The notes beneath the pieces were generated by a model, which saw nothing but the letters and a program-made list of their open reading frames with translations, had not been told where the DNA came from and made no database searches. From a virus (lineage: Duplodnaviria; Heunggongvirae; Uroviricota; Caudoviricetes): a stretch of DNA of 64,000 nucleotides. This document shows, one piece after another, positions 4,800 through 64,000 of the stretch (within the stretch, counting starts at the first letter, position 1; each line of letters begins with the position of its first letter). The position numbers and the translations under genes were made by a program. The stretch lies in the IMG/VR virus record IMGVR_UViG_3300011008_000020. The stretch is one strand, 5' to 3'.

Positions 4800-6205
4800 T
4801 TACAGGATGCCATGCAGGTAGTGCGTGGTCTCGGCCTTCTCGACGTTGCCGGTGGAGCCGTCGTCCATGCCGGTCGCAAGGCCGCGCTGCTTGAAAGCCT
4901 TGGCGATGCCATCCTCGATCATCTTCTGAACAGCGTCGGCGTTCAGGGTCTCGGCGGCGGGGGCCTCCTCGGCCTGCTTCTCGACGGGCTTGGTAGCCTT
5001 CTCGATGGCGTCGGCGATCATCTTCTTGACGGTCTCCTCAGTCATCGTCTCGGCCTGCTTCTCGACCTGCTCCTCGGCAGGCTGATCGGCGGGCTTCATG
5101 GCCTTCTGGATGCTCTCGTCGATCATCTTCTGGATGTCTTCCTTGTTCACTTCGGTTTCCTCCTCATCTTCGTTCTTGTCGTCGGTTTCGGCGTCGTCCG
5201 GCTCGTCCTGATCGTCGTCAGGCTCGTCATCGAATTCCTTGGCGAACTCGATAAGCTGCTGGGCGATGCCATTCAGCTTCTCCTTGTTGGCCTTGGACAT
5301 CTTGCGTCCGGCCTTCTCCACGGCGTCCTCGCCACCGTCAGCAGCATCGGTCGGGTGGGCGTCGTGAAGTTCCTTGGTGATGGTCGCGCCATTGTCGTTG
5401 AGAATCTCGACGATGATCTCGTCGAACTCCTCAAGGGCTTCGCGCACCTTCGCCTCGTCGGTTTCGTAGGCGGGTTCATCCGTCCAGTAGTCCCAACGAC
5501 GCAGCACGGTTTCCAGCGTGTTGAACGCAATCCAGAACTTCTCGGAGCGCACACGCTTCTCGTACTTGTCGCGCATCTCGCCCTTGACGATGGCGCTCTC
5601 GACGCCGAGCGCCTTCGCCAACTTTTCCAGCAGGTTCAGCTTGTCCGGCACGTCGCCGGTCGCAGCAGGCGCGGATTCGGGCGCGGTGGCCTTCTCAAGA
5701 TCCACGTCCTCCGTGGCGTACTTGCCGACGCCGCCCATCGACAGGCCGGTGATCTGGCCCTTCTCGATGGCCTCCCAGACGTCATCGTTGGCGACCTCGA
5801 CGGTCATCAGCCACGTGCCTTTCTGGATGGTCTCGCCCTCGATGACCTGCTCGGCCTTCGTGACGGAACTCTCGACGACGGTCAGGCCGTCCGCCTCCTC
5901 GAAGGAGTGCTGGATGTCGATCTTGTCGCCGTTCTTCATAAACCAGTGAGCGGCCTTTTCGATCTCGCTCTCGGTCATATAGTTGTCGTGGGCGTCCGCG
6001 ACGTTGGGTTCGTAGACGACGCCGGTGACGTAGTGGCTCTCGTTGTCCACCTTGATGATGCGACCGTTGGTCTGGAATCCCTGACCGCCGTCTTCCTCCT
6101 GCTTGGTCAGCAGAAACGACTTCTTGTTCGCAGCCTTGTCCACCAGCGACACGAACTTGATCTTGGCGTCCGTGATCTCAATGGACTTCTTCACATTGCT
6201 CATTT
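4800..6205 (-). CDS. prohead protease (XkdF-like) fused to scaffold-like C-terminal repeats
   Basis: RBS AAAGGAGGTGA then MSNVKKSIEITDAKIKFVSLVDKAANKK (XkdF/prohead protease-like motif). Acidic C-terminus with 3 repeats xQKMIxDxIxKAxKP. Confidence 0.7.
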
Positions 6206-21874: not shown

Positions 21875-21935
21875 GCGAAATTCTTGCAGAAAGGCACAAC
21901 TTGGATATGTTTCTATTGGTGTCCTTCCGTGGAAT

Positions 21936-21964
21936 ATTATAGCTTCTTTTAGTGGTATTGTCAA
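21936..21964 (-). promoter_or_regulatory. consensus sigma-A promoter TTGACA-17-TATAAT (family member 1)
   Basis: Minus strand reads TTGACAATACCACTAAAAGAAGCTATAATATTCCAC; shares flanks with four other copies. Confidence 0.65.
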
Positions 21965-22239
21965 GCGGAAGATGGCTCTATTGGTGGCTTTTTTACGGAT
22001 TTGTCAAGGTTTCCAGCCTCGAAGGAGGCGCGGAACCTTGGCAACCTGAGTTGCCATCCGGTTGCCGAAGCATAAAAACATACGGAAAGTTGTGGAAAAT
22101 ACGGAAAATTGCGCCTTTGCCAGAGTGGCCGCGCCGGTGTGCTGGTGGTGCCGGAATCCCCTGAAATCGCTGTGCAATATGCGCATAGAACGTGTAGATT
22201 ATAGAGCAATAAGCATAAAAGCAAGGGCAAATACAGGGT

Positions 22240-38372: not shown

Positions 38373-38422
38373 GGTGAAGTTCCTCCTTTGTGAGTGTTTC
38401 CAGTGGTTGCTTTCTGTGGAAT

Positions 38423-38451
38423 ATTATAGCCGCTAATGGTGTCATTGTCAA
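38423..38451 (-). promoter_or_regulatory. consensus sigma-A promoter TTGACA-17-TATAAT (family member 2)
   Basis: Minus strand reads TTGACAATGACACCATTAGCGGCTATAATATTCCAC. Confidence 0.7.
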
Positions 38452-38529
38452 GAGGGAAAATGCCTCTTTTGGAAACTATTTTCGGAATTTCCCGCTTCTT
38501 ATGGTGGTTTTTTCTTGTTGACACTCCTC

Positions 38530-48953: not shown

Positions 48954-49040
48954 ATGGATTCACCCTCTTTCACCCCCACGCCCGTCGCCGGGCGCAGGGG
49001 AGTGTTCGTCTATGACACCGTTAGATGCCGTTTGTGGAAT

Positions 49041-49069
49041 ATTATAGCCGCTAACGGTGTCATTGTCAA
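49041..49069 (-). promoter_or_regulatory. consensus sigma-A promoter TTGACA-17-TATAAT (family member 3)
   Basis: Minus strand reads TTGACAATGACACCGTTAGCGGCTATAATATTCCAC. Confidence 0.7.
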
Positions 49070-49101
49070 TATGGTTAATGCAACTGATAGAAACTTTTTT
49101 G

Positions 49102-54568: not shown

Positions 54569-54605
54569 CCTCCTTTCTGTTTCTAATGGTGTCGTCCCGT
54601 GGAAT

Positions 54606-54634
54606 ATTATAGGCGCTGTTAGAAACTTTGTCAA
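54606..54634 (-). promoter_or_regulatory. consensus sigma-A promoter TTGACA-17-TATAAT (family member 4)
   Basis: Minus strand reads TTGACAAAGTTTCTAACAGCGCCTATAATATTCCAC. Confidence 0.65.
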
Positions 54635-54658
54635 GCCCTTTTTTGTCTCTGATCGTGT

Positions 54659-54982
54659 TTATTTTACTGCCGGGGCGCGACGCTGGCCGCGCTGGACAGA
54701 ACCAGACCGGGCGACGCGGGAAACGGAGCGCCCATACTGATGAAACTGGGTCTCAAATTCGGGGTTCAGGAAAACCAGATCATCCGGGTTCGGATTGTCG
54801 CCGCGTTCCCTTGCCTCGGCGAAGCGCTCCATGTTGACGCTCTGGATTCGGCGCTGCAGGTCACGAACGGTGTCCGCATAGTACATGCGCTCCTCCGCGA
54901 CGGCGCGGTACTTGTCCCAGATCACGAGGCGGTCGATGCCGATACCAGCGATCAGCGCGAGAATGATATACAGGGTAATCAT
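54659..54982 (-). CDS. membrane-anchored hypothetical protein
   Basis: RBS AAGGAGG then MITLYIILALIAGIGI. Confidence 0.5.
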   Translation of the reverse strand: MITLYIILALIAGIGIDRLVIWDKYRAVAEERMYYADTVRDLQRRIQSVNMERFAEARERGDNPNPDDLVFLNPEFETQFHQYGRSVSRVARSGSVQRGQRRAPAVK

Positions 54983-58609: not shown

Positions 58610-58740
58610 ACCCCCTTGTCGTTGCACTCGGCTGAAATTGACGGTATAATGGAAGTTGGGTTTTTAGCACTGATTCGCAATCTTGCGCGGTTTGCGCCGT
58701 TTGCGTGTTCCGTGGAATACCGTCAAGCTGTTATGGGGAC

Positions 58741-58769
58741 AGTATAATCCACAAATGTAGTTTTGTCAA
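58741..58769 (-). promoter_or_regulatory. cro-type promoter TTGACA-17-TATACT with CAAATGTAG operator repeats
   Basis: CAAATGTAG at 58752-58760 and 58774-58782, in the divergent region between the cro-like and cI-like genes. Confidence 0.6.
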
Positions 58770-60529: not shown

Positions 60530-60955
60530 ATGTCAATTTTCGGTGAGAGGCTGTATGAGGCCCGCAGGCGGCAGCGGATTACTCAAGGCGATCTGGCAGA
60601 TCGCGCAGGCGTCACCCGGTCGGCCATCGGTGGGTATGAGAAGATGGGAAAGGATGCCAGCTATGAAGTATTGGTGAAGATCGCGCAGGCACTCGGCGTG
60701 ACGACTGACTACCTGCTCGGCATGGACGACAATGCTGGCTGGCATAAGCGCACCGGCGTCGCCGAGAAGTTCTACGATCTTGAGCTTTACTATGACCGTG
60801 CGCCAGACGAGCAGAAAGCCACCATAGACAGCCTGCTCGTGGAGGTGGACAAGTTGCTCGCCTTCTTCCTCGCGTCGCCGGACACGGCGCGGCTGGGCCA
60901 TCTGCGTGACCTCCTCGCGGACGCCCGCAGGCTCATGGGTGATGGCAATGAGTGA
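60530..60955 (+). CDS. XRE-family HTH regulator with C-terminal domain
   Basis: RBS GGAAGGAG then MSIFGERLYEARRRQRITQGDLADRAGVTRSAIGGYE. Confidence 0.65.
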   Translation: MSIFGERLYEARRRQRITQGDLADRAGVTRSAIGGYEKMGKDASYEVLVKIAQALGVTTDYLLGMDDNAGWHKRTGVAEKFYDLELYYDRAPDEQKATIDSLLVEVDKLLAFFLASPDTARLGHLRDLLADARRLMGDGNE

Positions 60956-62138
60956 GAACAAGCCGTTCGTCGTCTACGGCGACTATGGGCGCGACAGCGA
61001 GGGCAAGCGCATCCGAAAGAAGTTCACCGGCGTGGACGAGGTGGAGGCCCGGTTGAAGAAGCGGGAGTATGAGAAGGAACGCGCCATTGGCCTGCACAAG
61101 TACGCCGACACCATGACGGTGCGCCAGTGGACGGACATCTGGATGAACGCCTACCGCTCCGAGATCAAGGGCACGAACAAGGTCTCCTATGACACATACG
61201 TCGGGCGGCTGAACGCAGAGATCGGCCACATGAAGATCAAGGATGTGCAGAACATCCACCTGTACCGATGCTTGTTGACCATGAAAGGAATGTCGAAGTC
61301 GTCCCTCACAAAGTACCGCATGGTGATTCAGCAGGTATTCCGAAAGGCCCGGCAGAACAAGGTGCTCCCGGACGACCCAAGTGAAGACCTCGAACTGCCG
61401 AACGGCACCAGCGGGACGCACCGGGCGCTTGAGAAGTGGGAGATCGACCTGATCTTCGAGAATTGGCAGGTCTATAACAGCGGCCTATGGGTGATGATTA
61501 TGCTGCTGGCCGGGCTTCGGCGCGGCGAGCTGGTGGCCCTCGACTGGGACTACGTGGACATGAAGGAGCGCAACATCGTCGTCGAGCGTGCCGCCGAGAT
61601 CGTGACGAATCAGGCCGTCATCAAGGATTCCGCCAAGACAGAGGCCGGGACGAGGGCGCTGCCGATCTGCGACAAGCTGTTCGATGCGCTGTCCACCGTG
61701 CCGGAGGCGGAGCGCAAGGGGCCGGTGTGCCACAGCAAGGGCGGCGTGCGCCTGACGCAATCCTCATATTCGTGGGGGATGCGCACCTTCAACCAAGCGA
61801 TGGAGCGGATTCTGAACGGCGAGCCGCCAATCCAGCAGGGACGCCGGAAGGATTGCGAGGACAAGAAGAAGGGCCAGAAGGAAAAGGAGGCGCAGGAGCG
61901 CAAGAGGTTTTCCATCCGTGGACACGATCTGCGGTTCACCTACGCGACCGCGCTCTACGACGCGGGGGTCGATGTCAAATCTGCCATGTACTACCTCGGC
62001 CACAGCGACATCCGCATGACAATGAGCCTATACACTCAGCTTTCAAAGGAACGCGAGAACCTGTCCCGCGCACAGGCGATCACCTTCCTCGACAACTGGC
62101 TGAAACCCAAGAACGACGACGAAAAAGACGAAGATTGA
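60948..62138 (+). CDS. int: tyrosine-type site-specific integrase
   Basis: Catalytic residues R (LRRGELVALDW), H-x-x-R (HDLRFTYA) and Y (SLYTQL); overlaps the upstream gene's stop. Confidence 0.9.
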   Translation: MSENKPFVVYGDYGRDSEGKRIRKKFTGVDEVEARLKKREYEKERAIGLHKYADTMTVRQWTDIWMNAYRSEIKGTNKVSYDTYVGRLNAEIGHMKIKDVQNIHLYRCLLTMKGMSKSSLTKYRMVIQQVFRKARQNKVLPDDPSEDLELPNGTSGTHRALEKWEIDLIFENWQVYNSGLWVMIMLLAGLRRGELVALDWDYVDMKERNIVVERAAEIVTNQAVIKDSAKTEAGTRALPICDKLFDALSTVPEAERKGPVCHSKGGVRLTQSSYSWGMRTFNQAMERILNGEPPIQQGRRKDCEDKKKGQKEKEAQERKRFSIRGHDLRFTYATALYDAGVDVKSAMYYLGHSDIRMTMSLYTQLSKERENLSRAQAITFLDNWLKPKNDDEKDED

Positions 62139-62142
62139 CCTT

Positions 62143-62169
62143 CCCGCCTGCATGGCGGGAATTTTTTTG
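62143..62169 (+). terminator. rho-independent terminator after int
   Basis: CCCGCC-tgcat-GGCGGG then AATTTTTTTG. Confidence 0.7.
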
Positions 62170-62202
62170 TGTAAAAATCCACTATTGGTGTCAATTTTCA
62201 TC

Positions 62203-62231
62203 TTGACAATGTTGCCATTAGTTGCTATAAT
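62203..62231 (+). promoter_or_regulatory. consensus sigma-A promoter TTGACA-17-TATAAT (plus-strand family member)
   Basis: CTTGACAATGTTGCCATTAGTTGCTATAATGG; TGGTGTCAAT motif at 62187-62196. Confidence 0.65.
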
Positions 62232-62264
62232 GGATTTGAAAATGACGCGAAGGGAGACAATCAC

Positions 62265-62777
62265 ATGAGCGCAGGCGACACGCGGCAGCAGATTCGAGCC
62301 ATGACGCTTGTCGCCCGGCAAGTACTCGGAGACGGCTTCGGCTATTACCTCACCCAGCGGCCACCCGCGCCCGGAGCGCATCCGAATGACGCGCACGCCG
62401 TCGTCTCGTTGGACGCGAAGATGTGGCATGACGGAATCTGTCAGGAGATTTGGGGCTGGGTTTGCTACCGGCGACAGCTCACCAACGCGGAGGTCGAAGA
62501 ATACGAGCTGCTCCCGGACGAGGACAACCCCGTGAGGTATCAACAATATGGCATCGTGCTGTATGAGCGTGTGAAGGACGCGGACGGGCGCTCAAGGATG
62601 CGGAAGACGCCGGTGACGGAAGGCGGCAGCAGAGGCGAGCGGTTCATCACCAGCTACAAGGGCAAGGCCTTCGCATTGATCGACTTCCTGAACAAGAAGG
62701 CGGGGGCGAAGCTGAATCTAAAGGTCGTCAAGCTGCCGCAGAATGGAACAACGGACGCAGCACCGACACGACAATGA
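62265..62777 (+). CDS. hypothetical protein (moron between int and the element boundary)
   Basis: RBS GAAGGGAGAC then MSAGDTRQQ; 170 aa. Confidence 0.55.
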   Translation: MSAGDTRQQIRAMTLVARQVLGDGFGYYLTQRPPAPGAHPNDAHAVVSLDAKMWHDGICQEIWGWVCYRRQLTNAEVEEYELLPDEDNPVRYQQYGIVLYERVKDADGRSRMRKTPVTEGGSRGERFITSYKGKAFALIDFLNKKAGAKLNLKVVKLPQNGTTDAAPTRQ

Positions 62778-63053
62778 TCGGAGGGCGAGTGAAGCGGCTC
62801 TGCAGTAGCTGCGACGCGGAGCGGTTCAAATCCGACACGTCCGGGAAGGTGCCGAGGGTGTTGCAGTCACCCATCGGCGCAGCCAACGAGGTTACGGGGA
62901 CTTTGAGGCTTAAACTGTAAGACAACCCGGTGGCAGCTCGGAAAGACGGCAGCGGGGCTTCACCGTGTGGATTGCCGGGAAGCACCTGCATCGGCTGGCC
63001 GGGTTGCCGCCCGGCTGGCCCTCCAAGAGTGCTGAGAGGAGGTGGAGGCGGTG

Positions 63054-63320
63054 ATGCTGTTCGGTGACAAGAATACATCGGAGCAGCCCATTGATGAACT
63101 GTGGAGCAGAGCCATTGAACTGCTCCGTGACGGGATTCAAACTCTCAAGGAACTGTTTGAGAGGTTGTATGAAGTATTCAAGGAGGCATGCCGTGTGTGT
63201 GCTCCGCTCCGCCCGCGTTCGTACCATAACGCGGTATGCGGTATCATGCGCACCATCTTCCTTTTCAAGCTACACCCTGCCGCGACCATGCGGTTTCACG
63301 TGGCGGCGACCGGCGATTAG
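63054..63320 (+). CDS. small hypothetical protein
   Basis: RBS AGAGGAGGTGG then MLFGDKNTSEQ. Confidence 0.4.
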   Translation: MLFGDKNTSEQPIDELWSRAIELLRDGIQTLKELFERLYEVFKEACRVCAPLRPRSYHNAVCGIMRTIFLFKLHPAATMRFHVAATGD

Positions 63321-63388
63321 ATGCGGCCCACATATTGAGCTCTGCCGAATGACCGGGCTGGACGATGGGTTATCCAGCCCGGAGTTAT

Positions 63389-63465
63389 GGGAAGGTACGC
63401 TAAGAGAACGCGGAGATCGGGGAGACACGATCTGATTGTTGGTTCAAACCCAACCCTTCTCACCA
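63389..63465 (+). other. tRNA-like element 1 (7-bp acceptor, T-arm, ACCA; aberrant 8-nt anticodon loop)
   Basis: GGGAAGG...GTTGG-TTCAAAC-CCAAC-CCTTCTC-A-CCA; anticodon stem AGATCG/CGATCT with loop GGGAGACA. Confidence 0.35.
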
Positions 63466-63625
63466 GTAGTGCGCGTCACTGTCGCGGCCTGATCACCCGC
63501 GCAGAAGCCTCCCTGTATCGGTAATGACGTTATGGAGCAGGGGTTCACCGTGCGAGTACGAGTGACCAACCGCAAGGCCCTTTTAGCACGGTTTGCGGGA
63601 CAGCCCGGAGAGACGGGCGATTTTC

Positions 63626-63707
63626 GGGAATGTAGCGTAATTTGGTAACGCACACAGGCGGTGCACCTAACCTGCGGTTGTCGGTTCGAATCCGAACATT
63701 CCCACCA
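63626..63707 (+). other. tRNA-like element 2 (7-bp acceptor, D-arm, T-arm GGTTCGAATCC, ACCA; no canonical anticodon arm)
   Basis: GGGAATG/CATTCCC acceptor; D-stem GCGT/ACGC; variable-arm-like AACC-tgc-GGTT. Confidence 0.35.
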
Positions 63708-63924
63708 ACACGCGGGGTCGCGCCCCTCCGTATGATGTGCCCGACAACCAGCCGGGCCGCGAGCCGGACGGATTACAGACCGATAGTAACTGCGACACGA
63801 CGGAGAGTGACGCCGTACAGCCCACAGCGAGAGGGCGGCTTGGCTGCGGCCAACGGAAGCAAAAAGCAAGCCGAAAAACGTAGCCCCGTCTTTCAATCAA
63901 TCGACCATTCACAAAGGAGGAAGC

Positions 63925-64000
63925 ATGGCACATGAAGCAAGCCAGAGCGAAGTCACAGCCGCCTTGAAGCGGCTCGGCAAATATCGCGGCCAGCTCAGTT
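63925..64000 (+). CDS. partial CDS (N-terminus only; continues beyond window)
   Basis: RBS AAAGGAGGAAGC then ATG; MAHEASQSEVTAALKRLGKYRGQLS. Confidence 0.45.
   Translation, partial: MAHEASQSEVTAALKRLGKYRGQLS

Follow-up and report, generated by a model that had tools for sequence, protein, structure and literature searches.

Conserved phage tRNA mimics in which a non-decoding hairpin replaces the anticodon arm

Structures shaped like tRNA are used as processing signals in a range of longer transcripts, including mitochondrial tRNA punctuation, the mascRNA of MALAT1, the C4 RNA that RNase P processes in phages P1 and P7, and the stable RNAs of the T4 tRNA cluster. The tRNA genes of phages are now viewed as weapons against tRNA-cleaving host defences, and anti-defence tRNAs have been described from T5-like and mycobacterial phages (PMC10264068, PMC11464382, PMC11555353). 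A naturally enlarged anticodon loop of 8 nt is found in yeast mitochondrial tRNA-Thr1 (PMC4267643), tRNA genes are often targeted by tyrosine integrases (PMC10865867, PMC9897764), and the ornate RNAs ROOL and GOLLD are encoded by phages near tRNA islands (PMC12286853). ROOL and GOLLD sometimes contain tRNAs in a linker. The locus described here goes beyond the view of phage tRNAs as weapons, in that decoding is given up and the tRNA shape is kept. It is part of a 64,000-nt stretch of a Caudoviricetes genome (IMG/VR record IMGVR_UViG_3300011008_000020), the whole of which is referred to as the window, and comprises two tandem tRNA-like elements on the plus strand, el1 and el2 (Table 1), as had been proposed for positions 63389-63707 by an original prediction made from the letters alone. 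Our analysis revealed that el1 and el2 are conserved phage tRNA mimics in which the anticodon arm is replaced by a non-decoding hairpin. The new step is that tRNA-shaped phage genes under selection have had the whole anticodon arm replaced.

The 7-bp acceptor stems, the GGTTCRAAYCC T-loops and the encoded 3' ACCA, all described in the original prediction, are present in both elements, along with a D stem and a 5-bp T stem bearing a T-loop of the TTCRANY type, the exceptions being the 3-bp D stem of el1 and a mismatched pair 49-65 in el2. The features of a substrate for RNase P and tRNA maturation (acceptor-T minihelix, G+1 and 3' RCCA) can be read in both sequences. Neither element has the canonical anticodon arm, in which a 5-bp stem is topped by a 7-nt loop that includes U33 and purine 37. 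At minimum free energy, el1 forms a cloverleaf whose anticodon stem has 6 bp and carries the loop GGGAGACA, which bears out the 8-nt anticodon loop that had been predicted; this loop contains no U and therefore no U33, is closed by an extra G-C pair, and counts 10 nt if measured from a normal 5-bp stem. At the anticodon-arm position of el2 there are 24 nt against the normal 17, with one A.C mismatch in the stem, followed by a variable region of 3 nt. The non-canonical anticodon arm had been rightly anticipated for el2, and the class-II-like variable hairpin proposed with it has to be given up, because the variable region is short.

Covariance-model and ARAGORN searches, which had been suggested as a check, gave a divided answer. 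The Rfam tRNA model RF00005, with a gathering score of 29, matched el2 over its full length at 42.2 bits (E = 1.4e-5 over the whole window), and ARAGORN called el2 alone, either as an 82-nt 'tRNA-His(gtg)' whose anticodon stem counts 3 bp or, with introns allowed, as tRNA-Arg(cct) with a 5-nt insert and the loop CACCUAA (A33). The match of the same model to el1 was also full-length and reached 28.5 bits (E = 0.0017 over 1.3 kb), and el1 received no ARAGORN call. Assignment of an isotype by similarity to 55 ARAGORN tRNAs of related loci returned T-loop-level matches only. Judging from these sequences, decoding by el1 or el2 is not plausible, because there is no U33, no 7-nt loop, and the el2 arm is anywhere between 24 and about 57 nt long; el1 has the loop length of a decoding tRNA with an 8-nt loop, but not the U that such a loop carries.

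Related loci (designated with L numbers) were found via homologues of the DarA_C protein encoded upstream of the elements (P0001-P0009, 47-76% identical), and the four-fold degenerate sites of the adjacent beta-clamp gene served as the neutral benchmark. Divergence at these sites is 38% between the window and L012, 42-62% for the other lineage pairs considered and 14% between L012 and L103. Against this benchmark, the el1 copies of the window and L012 differ at 14 of 77 sites (18%; binomial P = 1.4e-4), the 8-nt loop is invariant across the copies of el1, and a 12-nt stretch, CGGGGAGACACG, is unchanged between the window and L012. The spacer between el1 and el2 cannot be aligned with that of L012 except for 18 nt at 94% identity, corresponding to a hairpin with a GARAGA loop. 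Within the el1 comparison set, which holds 4 distinct sequences from 2 lineages (the window; L012, L103 and L106), 84 of 84 pair cells are standard, three pairs are changed on both sides, four are changed on one side to a wobble-compatible base, and 6 of 500 shuffles reach this covariation. The second-slot alignment contained eight sequences (six of the el2 type and the cassettes of L103 and L106), was restricted to the stems and was trimmed by hand; 97.7% of its cells are paired, of the 16 pairs in the acceptor, D and T stems, 7 show compensatory changes, a result attained by none of 500 shuffles, and slid controls pair in 54% of cells or less. The substitute arm of el2 changes in length: the window copy has 24 nt, those of L012 and L069 have about 38 nt, and those of L013, L014 and L006 reach 52-57 nt. 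In its long form it is an irregular helix, whose motifs GACGAAGGA[AC]GGGC and GCACCACCAC are kept across lineages with a neutral-site divergence of 42-62%. Taken together, these substitution patterns indicate that selection keeps the acceptor stem, the D stem, the T arm and the encoded CCA, which is the part of a tRNA read by RNase P, by 3'-end maturation, by the CCA enzyme and by factors that bind the elbow.

The order of the tyrosine integrase gene (int), the DarA_C gene, the island of tRNAs or tRNA-like elements and the beta-clamp gene is kept where the DarA_C proteins are only 47-54% identical, and this synteny, with a lysogeny module preceding int, was found in L006, L011, L012, L013 and L014. 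The islands of L006, L009 and L069 contain canonical tRNA-Ser(UGA), tRNA-Ser(GCU) and an el2-type element, and in L006 and L069 the real tRNA-Ser genes fill the equivalent slots. L012, L103 and L106 carry el1 and a second tRNA-like element, element X is found in L013 with L104 and in L011 with L102, element Y in L011 and L012, and in L014 a long el2 directly follows the hairpin that precedes el1 in the window (hairpin B). Element X is a tRNA-like body composed of an acceptor stem, a D arm, a conserved 13-nt linker replacing the absent anticodon arm, and a T arm. Element Y is composed of an acceptor stem, one hairpin and a T arm, is devoid of a D arm and of CCA, and ends with ...AATGATCG. Because the contents differ by lineage, the slots of the island take real tRNAs as well as several tRNA-like bodies, and the second-slot cassette has been exchanged and not mutated in place, because L103 and L106 differ from L012 despite the 14% neutral divergence. 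In L006 the modules of the island are reordered, with el2 upstream of the small open reading frame (ORF) that precedes hairpin B in the window.

Table 1. Positions of the features in the window and of elements X and Y in related loci
Feature	Position	Strand	Description
int terminator	62141-62161		directly before the early promoter
Predicted sigma-70 promoter of the rightward early operon	62203..62231	+	TTGACA, 17 nt, TATAAT, TG extension; 12/12 hexamer matches
DarA_C gene	62265..62777	+	first gene of the operon; 170 amino acids (aa); Pfam PF18789, E = 5.4e-15; 'defence against restriction' domain
Block A	62778..63041	+	conserved, non-coding; aligns with L012, L013, L014, L011; between DarA_C and small ORF
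Block A, T-loop-like hairpin	near 62823	+	GGTTCAAATCC
Block A, CCGGG...CCCGG hairpin	around ACTGTAAGACAAC
Block A, GAAAGA-loop hairpin	62937-62949
Block A, hairpin with conserved 17-nt loop			ACCGTGTGGATTGCCGG
Small conserved ORF	63054..63320	+	88 aa; C-terminus ...MRFHVAATGD
Hairpin B	63353..63382	+	10-bp stem CCGGGCTGGA/TCCAGCCCGG, loop CGATGGGTTA; ends 6 nt before el1
el1, 77-nt tRNA-like RNA	63389..63465	+	Rfam tRNA match, cloverleaf fold, pair covariation
el1 acceptor stem	63389-63395 with 63455-63461	+	7 bp
el1 D arm	63398-63412	+	3-bp D stem
el1 substitute anticodon arm	63414-63433	+	6-bp stem AGATCG/CGATCT; 8-nt loop GGGAGACA at 63420-63427
el1 T arm	63438-63454	+
el1 encoded ACCA	63462-63465	+
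Hairpin CCCG-GAGAGA-CGGG	63604..63617	+	ends 8 nt before el2; sole part of the el1-el2 spacer conserved with L012
el2, 82-nt tRNA-like RNA	63626..63707	+	Rfam tRNA, ARAGORN, folding, covariation
el2 acceptor stem	63626-63632 with 63697-63703	+	7 bp
el2 D arm	63635-63651	+	GG in loop (AATTTGGTA)
el2 substitute anticodon arm	63653-63676	+	stem CACAGG/CCTGCG, 12-nt loop
el2 T arm	63680-63696	+	G.A mismatch at pair 49-65
el2 encoded ACCA	63704-63707	+
Block C core	63714..63841	+	starts 6 nt after el2 CCA; leads into next cistron
Start of 70-aa ORF (MAHEASQSEV...)	63927..64000	+	ribosome-binding site AAAGGAGGAAGC; conserved; continues in L001 (99.7% identical to the window)
Element X in L013	2600-2668		coordinates of the oriented extract, not of the locus
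Element X in L011	2641-2712		coordinates of the oriented extract, not of the locus
Element X in L006	~5781-5846
Element Y in L012
Element Y in L011
Element Y in L006	~5915-5985

The tRNA-like elements are accompanied by hairpins on their 5' side. In all relatives the folding energy of hairpin B lies between -20 and -25 kcal/mol, as compared with a mean of -10.2 (standard deviation 4.2) for unselected 45-mers of the window; the hairpin shows compensatory changes, such as CCGGGC..GCCCGG versus CCGTGC..GCACGG, and is always placed 5-6 nt upstream of a tRNA-like element, be it el1, X or el2. In L012, L103, L106 and L006, el2 or the second element likewise has a hairpin of the GARAGA type before it, as does the tRNA-Ser(UGA) gene in L006. 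Hairpins with a G-GA(G/A)AGA-C loop recur at 62937-62949, 63604-63617, 63420-63427 and 63800-63815 and were also seen in L006, L012 and L014; they often come after GACAG, and the distance to the tRNA or tRNA-like element that follows is usually 5-8 nt. Their loops resemble the boxB loops of lambdoid phages. The loop of el1 in its context, CG-GGGAGACA-CG, is similar to CG-GAGAGA-CG and CG-GAAAGA-CG, and a hairpin of Block C, CG-GAGAGUGA-CG, also looks like a variant. Since the el1 loop resembles the neighbouring GARAGA loops, el1 may display, on a tRNA scaffold, a protein-binding motif shared with these hairpins. The 8-mer of the el1 loop occurs three times in the window against 2.7 expected, which is the chance frequency. 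One of the three copies lies in the ribosome-binding region of DarA_C (62252-62259, GACGCGAAGGGAGACAatcacATG), where it is present in the window and in L012, both of which bear el1, and absent from relatives without el1. Targets complementary to the loop of el2 were counted at chance level.

Downstream of el2 lies Block C, a motif of about 100-128 nt in phage tRNA islands that is often directly flanked by tRNAs or tRNA-like elements. The Block C pattern GACACGACGGAGAGNNACGCCG was found in 87 IMG/VR contigs. Besides the window, the motif was noted in L011, L013-L015, L017, L020, L025, L028, L032, L039, L053, L054, L066, L069, L074, L075, L078, L091 and L094. In 21 diverse copies, pairing extends to 97.9% of cells, compensatory changes affect 6 of 18 pairs, none of 500 shuffles reaches the covariation score, and no Rfam 15 family was matched. 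Its helices are P1 (GGGG/CCCC), P2 (UCCG/CGGA) and P5 (GCCC/GGGC), of which P2 contains a variable insert and co-varies to GCUG/CAGC, GCGG/CCGC and CCCG/CGGG; its single-stranded stretches are highly conserved, and an H-type pseudoknot, CGG..CAG..CCG..CUG, is likely. Block C is a widespread structured RNA new to Rfam, located in the tRNA islands of many gut phages.

Several phages with Block C also carry odd tRNA-like elements. Just downstream of Block C in L028 and L035, ARAGORN reported 79-nt 'tRNA-???' elements, to which it gave 4-base anticodons (tatg, tacg). The 161-nt element of L079 resembles a tRNA(CAU) into which about 84 nt have been inserted ahead of the anticodon loop, and oversized tRNA-like elements with CCA ends were found in L074 (137 nt), L032 (103 nt) and L069 (118 and 128 nt). 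L039 (IMGVR_UViG_3300029713_000003, 91.6 kb), a large phage related to that of the window, has more than 20 tRNA genes, one of them called by ARAGORN as tRNA-Pyl(cta) with an anticodon of the amber-suppressor type, which hints at TAG recoding in this lineage.

Upstream of the small ORF, Block A is a further conserved non-coding region without an Rfam match. Compensatory changes in its stems, such as GCTTC/GAAGC, GCGTC/GACGC and GCATC/GATGC, were seen by eye only. An anticodon-arm-like hairpin with the 7-nt loop CUGCAGU precedes its T-loop-like hairpin, and together they may represent a degenerate tRNA-like body, the fourth of the locus, whose sequence overlaps with the end of DarA_C. Its modules are present in L006 in another order. 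The idea that Block A is a permuted transfer-messenger RNA (tmRNA), which rested on the T-loop and a GGATTGCCGGGA stretch, was dropped, as a complementary acceptor strand is absent and neither ARAGORN nor Rfam reported one.

In the window, positions 1 to about 58.6 kb are occupied by minus-strand phage genes, among them those for terminase, portal, head protease, SbcCD, methyltransferases, RecU and ThyX. The lysogeny module that follows on the plus strand encodes helix-turn-helix (HTH) proteins, a DUF5780 protein and the tyrosine integrase (60906-62138); el1 and el2 lie 1.25 kb downstream of the latter, which agrees with their predicted position to the right of int. The predicted early promoter is kept upstream of the DarA_C gene in all six relatives compared (6/6), and it is followed by DarA_C, Block A, the 88-aa ORF, hairpin B, el1, the variable spacer, the GAGAGA hairpin, el2, Block C and the 70-aa ORF. 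Between the promoter and position 64000, no terminator-like site was found on the plus strand except the anticodon arm of el1 itself. The C-terminal motif of the 88-aa ORF is conserved in L012, L013, L014, L011 and L006, and the protein matched no Pfam or PHROG family. On the minus strand, a frame of 150 aa (63444-63896) had been taken by the original prediction for a translation artefact typical of tRNA genes, with the signature GFEPT; it is an artefact of tRNA-like DNA, but its T-loop reads 'CSDSNRQ'.

Beyond the end of the window, a 99.7%-identical IMG/VR contig continues with the 70-aa ORF, the beta clamp, an HNH gene and further phage genes, so that the elements are flanked by phage genes on both sides (int, DarA_C and the small ORF upstream; the 70-aa ORF, beta clamp and HNH gene downstream). 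This contig (IMGVR_UViG_3300011005_000242, 41.5 kb) bridges positions 62055-64000 and 1-802 of the window, and because it joins both ends, the phage genome closes on itself at about 103 kb without host flank; the longest contig with an identical DarA_C protein, 103,255 nt, agrees with this size. The identity of the 41.5-kb contig to the window is 99.7% in the right arm and 91% at 1-802. Three independent metagenome contigs stop inside the 3' part of int (61649-62055), at 61649, 61719 and 62055. These contig ends and the drop in identity suggest strain mosaicism or a recombination hot spot at int. By large terminase, the nearest sequenced phages are Dulem virus 37 (63%) and Faecalibacterium phage Roos (47%), on account of which a temperate phage of gut Clostridia is likely, and blastn of 62000-64000 against 50,697 GenBank phages gave zero matches. 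A repeat of about 75 nt, containing GTGGAATATTATAG...TTGTCAA, occurs at 21921-21995, 38408-38482, 49026-49100 and 54591-54665 and also near 58710-58760; read on the minus strand it is TTGACA-N17-TATAAT, and from this sequence the repeats are probably promoters of leftward operons.

The relatives were searched for by several routes. Scans of metagenomes and genomes for the C-terminal motif of the small ORF yielded four true relatives (L102, L103, L104 and L106). L101, L105, L107 and L108 were rejected as relatives, being chance motif matches in unrelated DNA. The 88-aa ORF as protein query retrieved two clusters, whose contigs end before the elements. Exact-pattern scans of IMG/VR for the arms of el1 and el2 returned the near-identical contig only, as did the DarA_C protein query in IMG/VR.

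We propose, with a confidence that is about evenly balanced, that el1 and el2 are tRNA-mimic processing modules of the early operon, which cut its transcript and release non-decoding, tRNA-shaped RNAs. A processing role is suggested because the elements sit between cistrons in an operon with no terminator, with hairpins 5-8 nt upstream of most elements and a structured RNA after el2. The operon would be transcribed from its promoter as a single long RNA, in which RNase P would cut el1 and el2 at G+1 and the 3' ends would be trimmed to the encoded CCA. Cleavage would split the message, so that the hairpin 5-8 nt upstream would become the protective 3' end of the upstream mRNA and Block C the structured 5' end of the mRNA for the downstream replication gene. 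Stable tRNA-shaped RNAs of 77 and 82 nt, unable to read codons, would be released. A further role is suggested because the el1 loop, the long arm of el2 and the linker of element X are conserved beyond the needs of a cleavage signal. Speculatively, the released RNAs might act in trans as mimics or sponges for a factor that recognizes tRNA shape, for instance a tRNA-targeting host defence enzyme or a phage RNA-binding protein that also binds GARAGA hairpins. They may serve as a decoy against tRNA-targeting defences, an idea that fits because of the predicted early promoter, the adjacent gene of anti-restriction type and the fast turnover of cassettes.

A number of observations weigh against the proposed processing modules. 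RNase P cleavage, CCA maturation and the stability of the RNAs are all inferred from sequence, and processing alone does not explain the invariant loop of el1 and the conserved long arm of el2. El1 falls narrowly below the Rfam tRNA threshold, and its D-loop in the window, AAGAGAA, has lost the GG (G18G19), which the elbow formed with the T-loop requires and which is present in the AATGGAA of the L012, L103 and L106 copies. The selection evidence for el1 is suggestive and not overwhelming, because only two lineages are available, the count of covarying pairs is small and some shuffles attain it. The T stem of el2 contains a G.A mismatch, and the hand-trimmed alignment pools el2-type elements with the different cassettes of L103 and L106. 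The upstream hairpin is weak or absent before some elements (el2 in L013; the elements of L069). The decoy idea lacks direct support: neither a tRNA-targeting system nor a tRNA-related enzyme was found in the window, and Pfam searches of 20 further window proteins revealed no ligase, CCA-adding enzyme or aminoacyl-tRNA synthetase.

Among the other explanations, it is possible, though on the whole unlikely, that the elements are cis-acting processing punctuation only and that the released pieces are functionless. Such a reading would account for the interchangeability of the slots with real tRNAs, for the protective hairpins upstream and the structured leader downstream, and for the restriction of the constraint across el2, X and Y to the upper half; it would leave unexplained why the 8-nt loop of el1 and its closing pairs are invariant in the face of 38% neutral divergence, why motifs of the long el2 arm are kept across distant lineages and why the 13-nt linker of X is also conserved, since none of these is needed for punctuation. 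At the other extreme stands a doubtful extension, according to which el1 and el2 would represent an undescribed class of 'arm-swapped' phage mimics, with the upper half as a scaffold for processing and stability and the arm as an exchangeable effector hairpin, forming together with the GARAGA hairpins and Block C an early RNA module that neutralizes tRNA-targeting immunity or controls early expression. We regard it as improbable that the elements are decaying pseudogenes of phage tRNAs, for example, in the case of el2, of a former tRNA-Arg(CCU) into which 5 nt were inserted. The intron-mode call of ARAGORN, the lost GG of the el1 D-loop in the window, the mismatched T stem of el2 and the fast second-slot turnover between L012 and L103/L106 could all be cited for decay. 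Yet compensatory changes hold every stem, el1 evolves at less than half the neutral rate, for which reasons the elements are not plain pseudogenes, and the spacer has diverged past alignment while the elements have not. Of pseudogenes created by integration, as considered in the original prediction, there is no sign, both elements being full-length, with 3' halves that are unrepeated in the window and 5' and 3' strands that co-vary.

The chance that el1 and el2 are domains of one large ornate RNA comprising Block A, the hairpins and Block C, in the manner of ROOL or GOLLD, appears slim. Conserved structured blocks do adjoin the elements on both sides, Block C occurs in the tRNA islands of many phages, and ROOL and GOLLD have similar surroundings; against this, a conserved protein-coding ORF splits the region, the modules are shuffled among relatives, as with el2 in L006, and the Rfam models of ROOL and GOLLD were matched neither in the window nor in 13 related loci. 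Working tRNAs with unusual loops, reading quadruplets or frameshifts or acting as suppressors, are very improbable. Natural tRNAs with 8-nt loops exist, such as yeast tRNA-Thr1, and 4-base 'anticodons' are drawn in L028 and L035, but the loop of el1, without U, would count 10 nt from a normal stem and the arm of el2 shifts by more than 30 nt among relatives. Moreover, the long phage ORFs read through normally in the standard code (table 11), and since they are intact the phage needs no suppressor tRNA. The suggestion of host tRNAs at the integration locus, together with attachment (att) scars at attB and an attP core of the neighbouring integrase, is scarcely credible and gains only from the tyrosine integrase upstream, for which tRNA genes would be usual targets. 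The elements are internal to a self-closing genome, with phage genes on both sides and an order kept in diverged relatives; a promoter, a gene, a structured RNA and an ORF intervene between int and el1; and the 3' halves are repeated nowhere else in the 64-kb window of the genome of about 103 kb. An att scar or prophage-host junction was rejected on these grounds and because the 5' and 3' strands co-vary within the phage lineage, which is not required of an attP core copied from the host. Of the possibilities raised by the original prediction, the one that holds is that of phage tRNA-like elements, which are phage-encoded, selected and non-decoding.

In this locus, tRNAs and their arm-swapped mimics are combined with conserved hairpins and a pseudoknotted RNA of wide distribution to form a modular island. 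If el1 and el2 are processing modules, they show how a temperate phage of gut Clostridia with a large genome organizes its early transcript; should they act as decoys or scaffolds, they would represent a new kind of RNA counter-defence. Block C raises the same question as ROOL and GOLLD, namely what role ornate RNAs play beside phage tRNAs.

Compared with ROOL and GOLLD (PMC12286853), the locus likewise encodes structured phage RNAs in or beside a tRNA island, but there is no Rfam match in sequence or structure, and its blocks are much smaller and modular. tmRNA and the bacterial Y-RNA-like YrlA share with el1 and el2 a tRNA-like upper half with a long helix at the place of the anticodon arm. 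Unlike tmRNA, the elements have no tag ORF and no pseudoknots, and a tmRNA assignment was rejected, since ARAGORN called none and positions 62700-64000 matched no Rfam tmRNA family at E up to 10; in YrlA the ends are located on the anticodon side, whereas el1 and el2 have theirs at the acceptor stem, with CCA. In tRNA-dependent lysogeny (PMC10865867), a tRNA gene is likewise found near the tyrosine integrase of a temperate phage, and this could apply to the tRNA-Ser genes of L006 and L069; the system needs a functional tRNA of the disrupted isotype, and decoding by el1 and el2 is not plausible. Enlarged-loop and frameshift-suppressor tRNAs resemble el1 in having an 8-nt loop on a tRNA-like body, but they keep U33 and a purine 3' of the anticodon, in place of which el1 has a loop without U and an extra closing G-C pair. 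With tRNA-like processing signals the elements have in common a tRNA-like upper half within a longer transcript, which recruits maturation enzymes and sets RNA ends. They differ in that their processing is predicted from sequence features, and in the conservation of the el1 loop and the long el2 arm beyond what cleavage requires. Finally, el1 and el2 are like the phage tRNAs, including those with anti-defence function (PMC10264068, PMC11464382, PMC11555353), in being phage-encoded, clustered and cloverleaf-shaped with an encoded CCA, in occupying the slots of the relatives' tRNA-Ser, in their predicted early expression and in adjoining a putative anti-restriction gene. The anti-defence tRNAs are decoding-competent replacements for nuclease-targeted host tRNAs, or resistant counterparts of them, which keep the 7-nt anticodon loop, still decode and carry point changes in the loop, whereas the decoding features of el1 and el2 fail and the whole arm is replaced.

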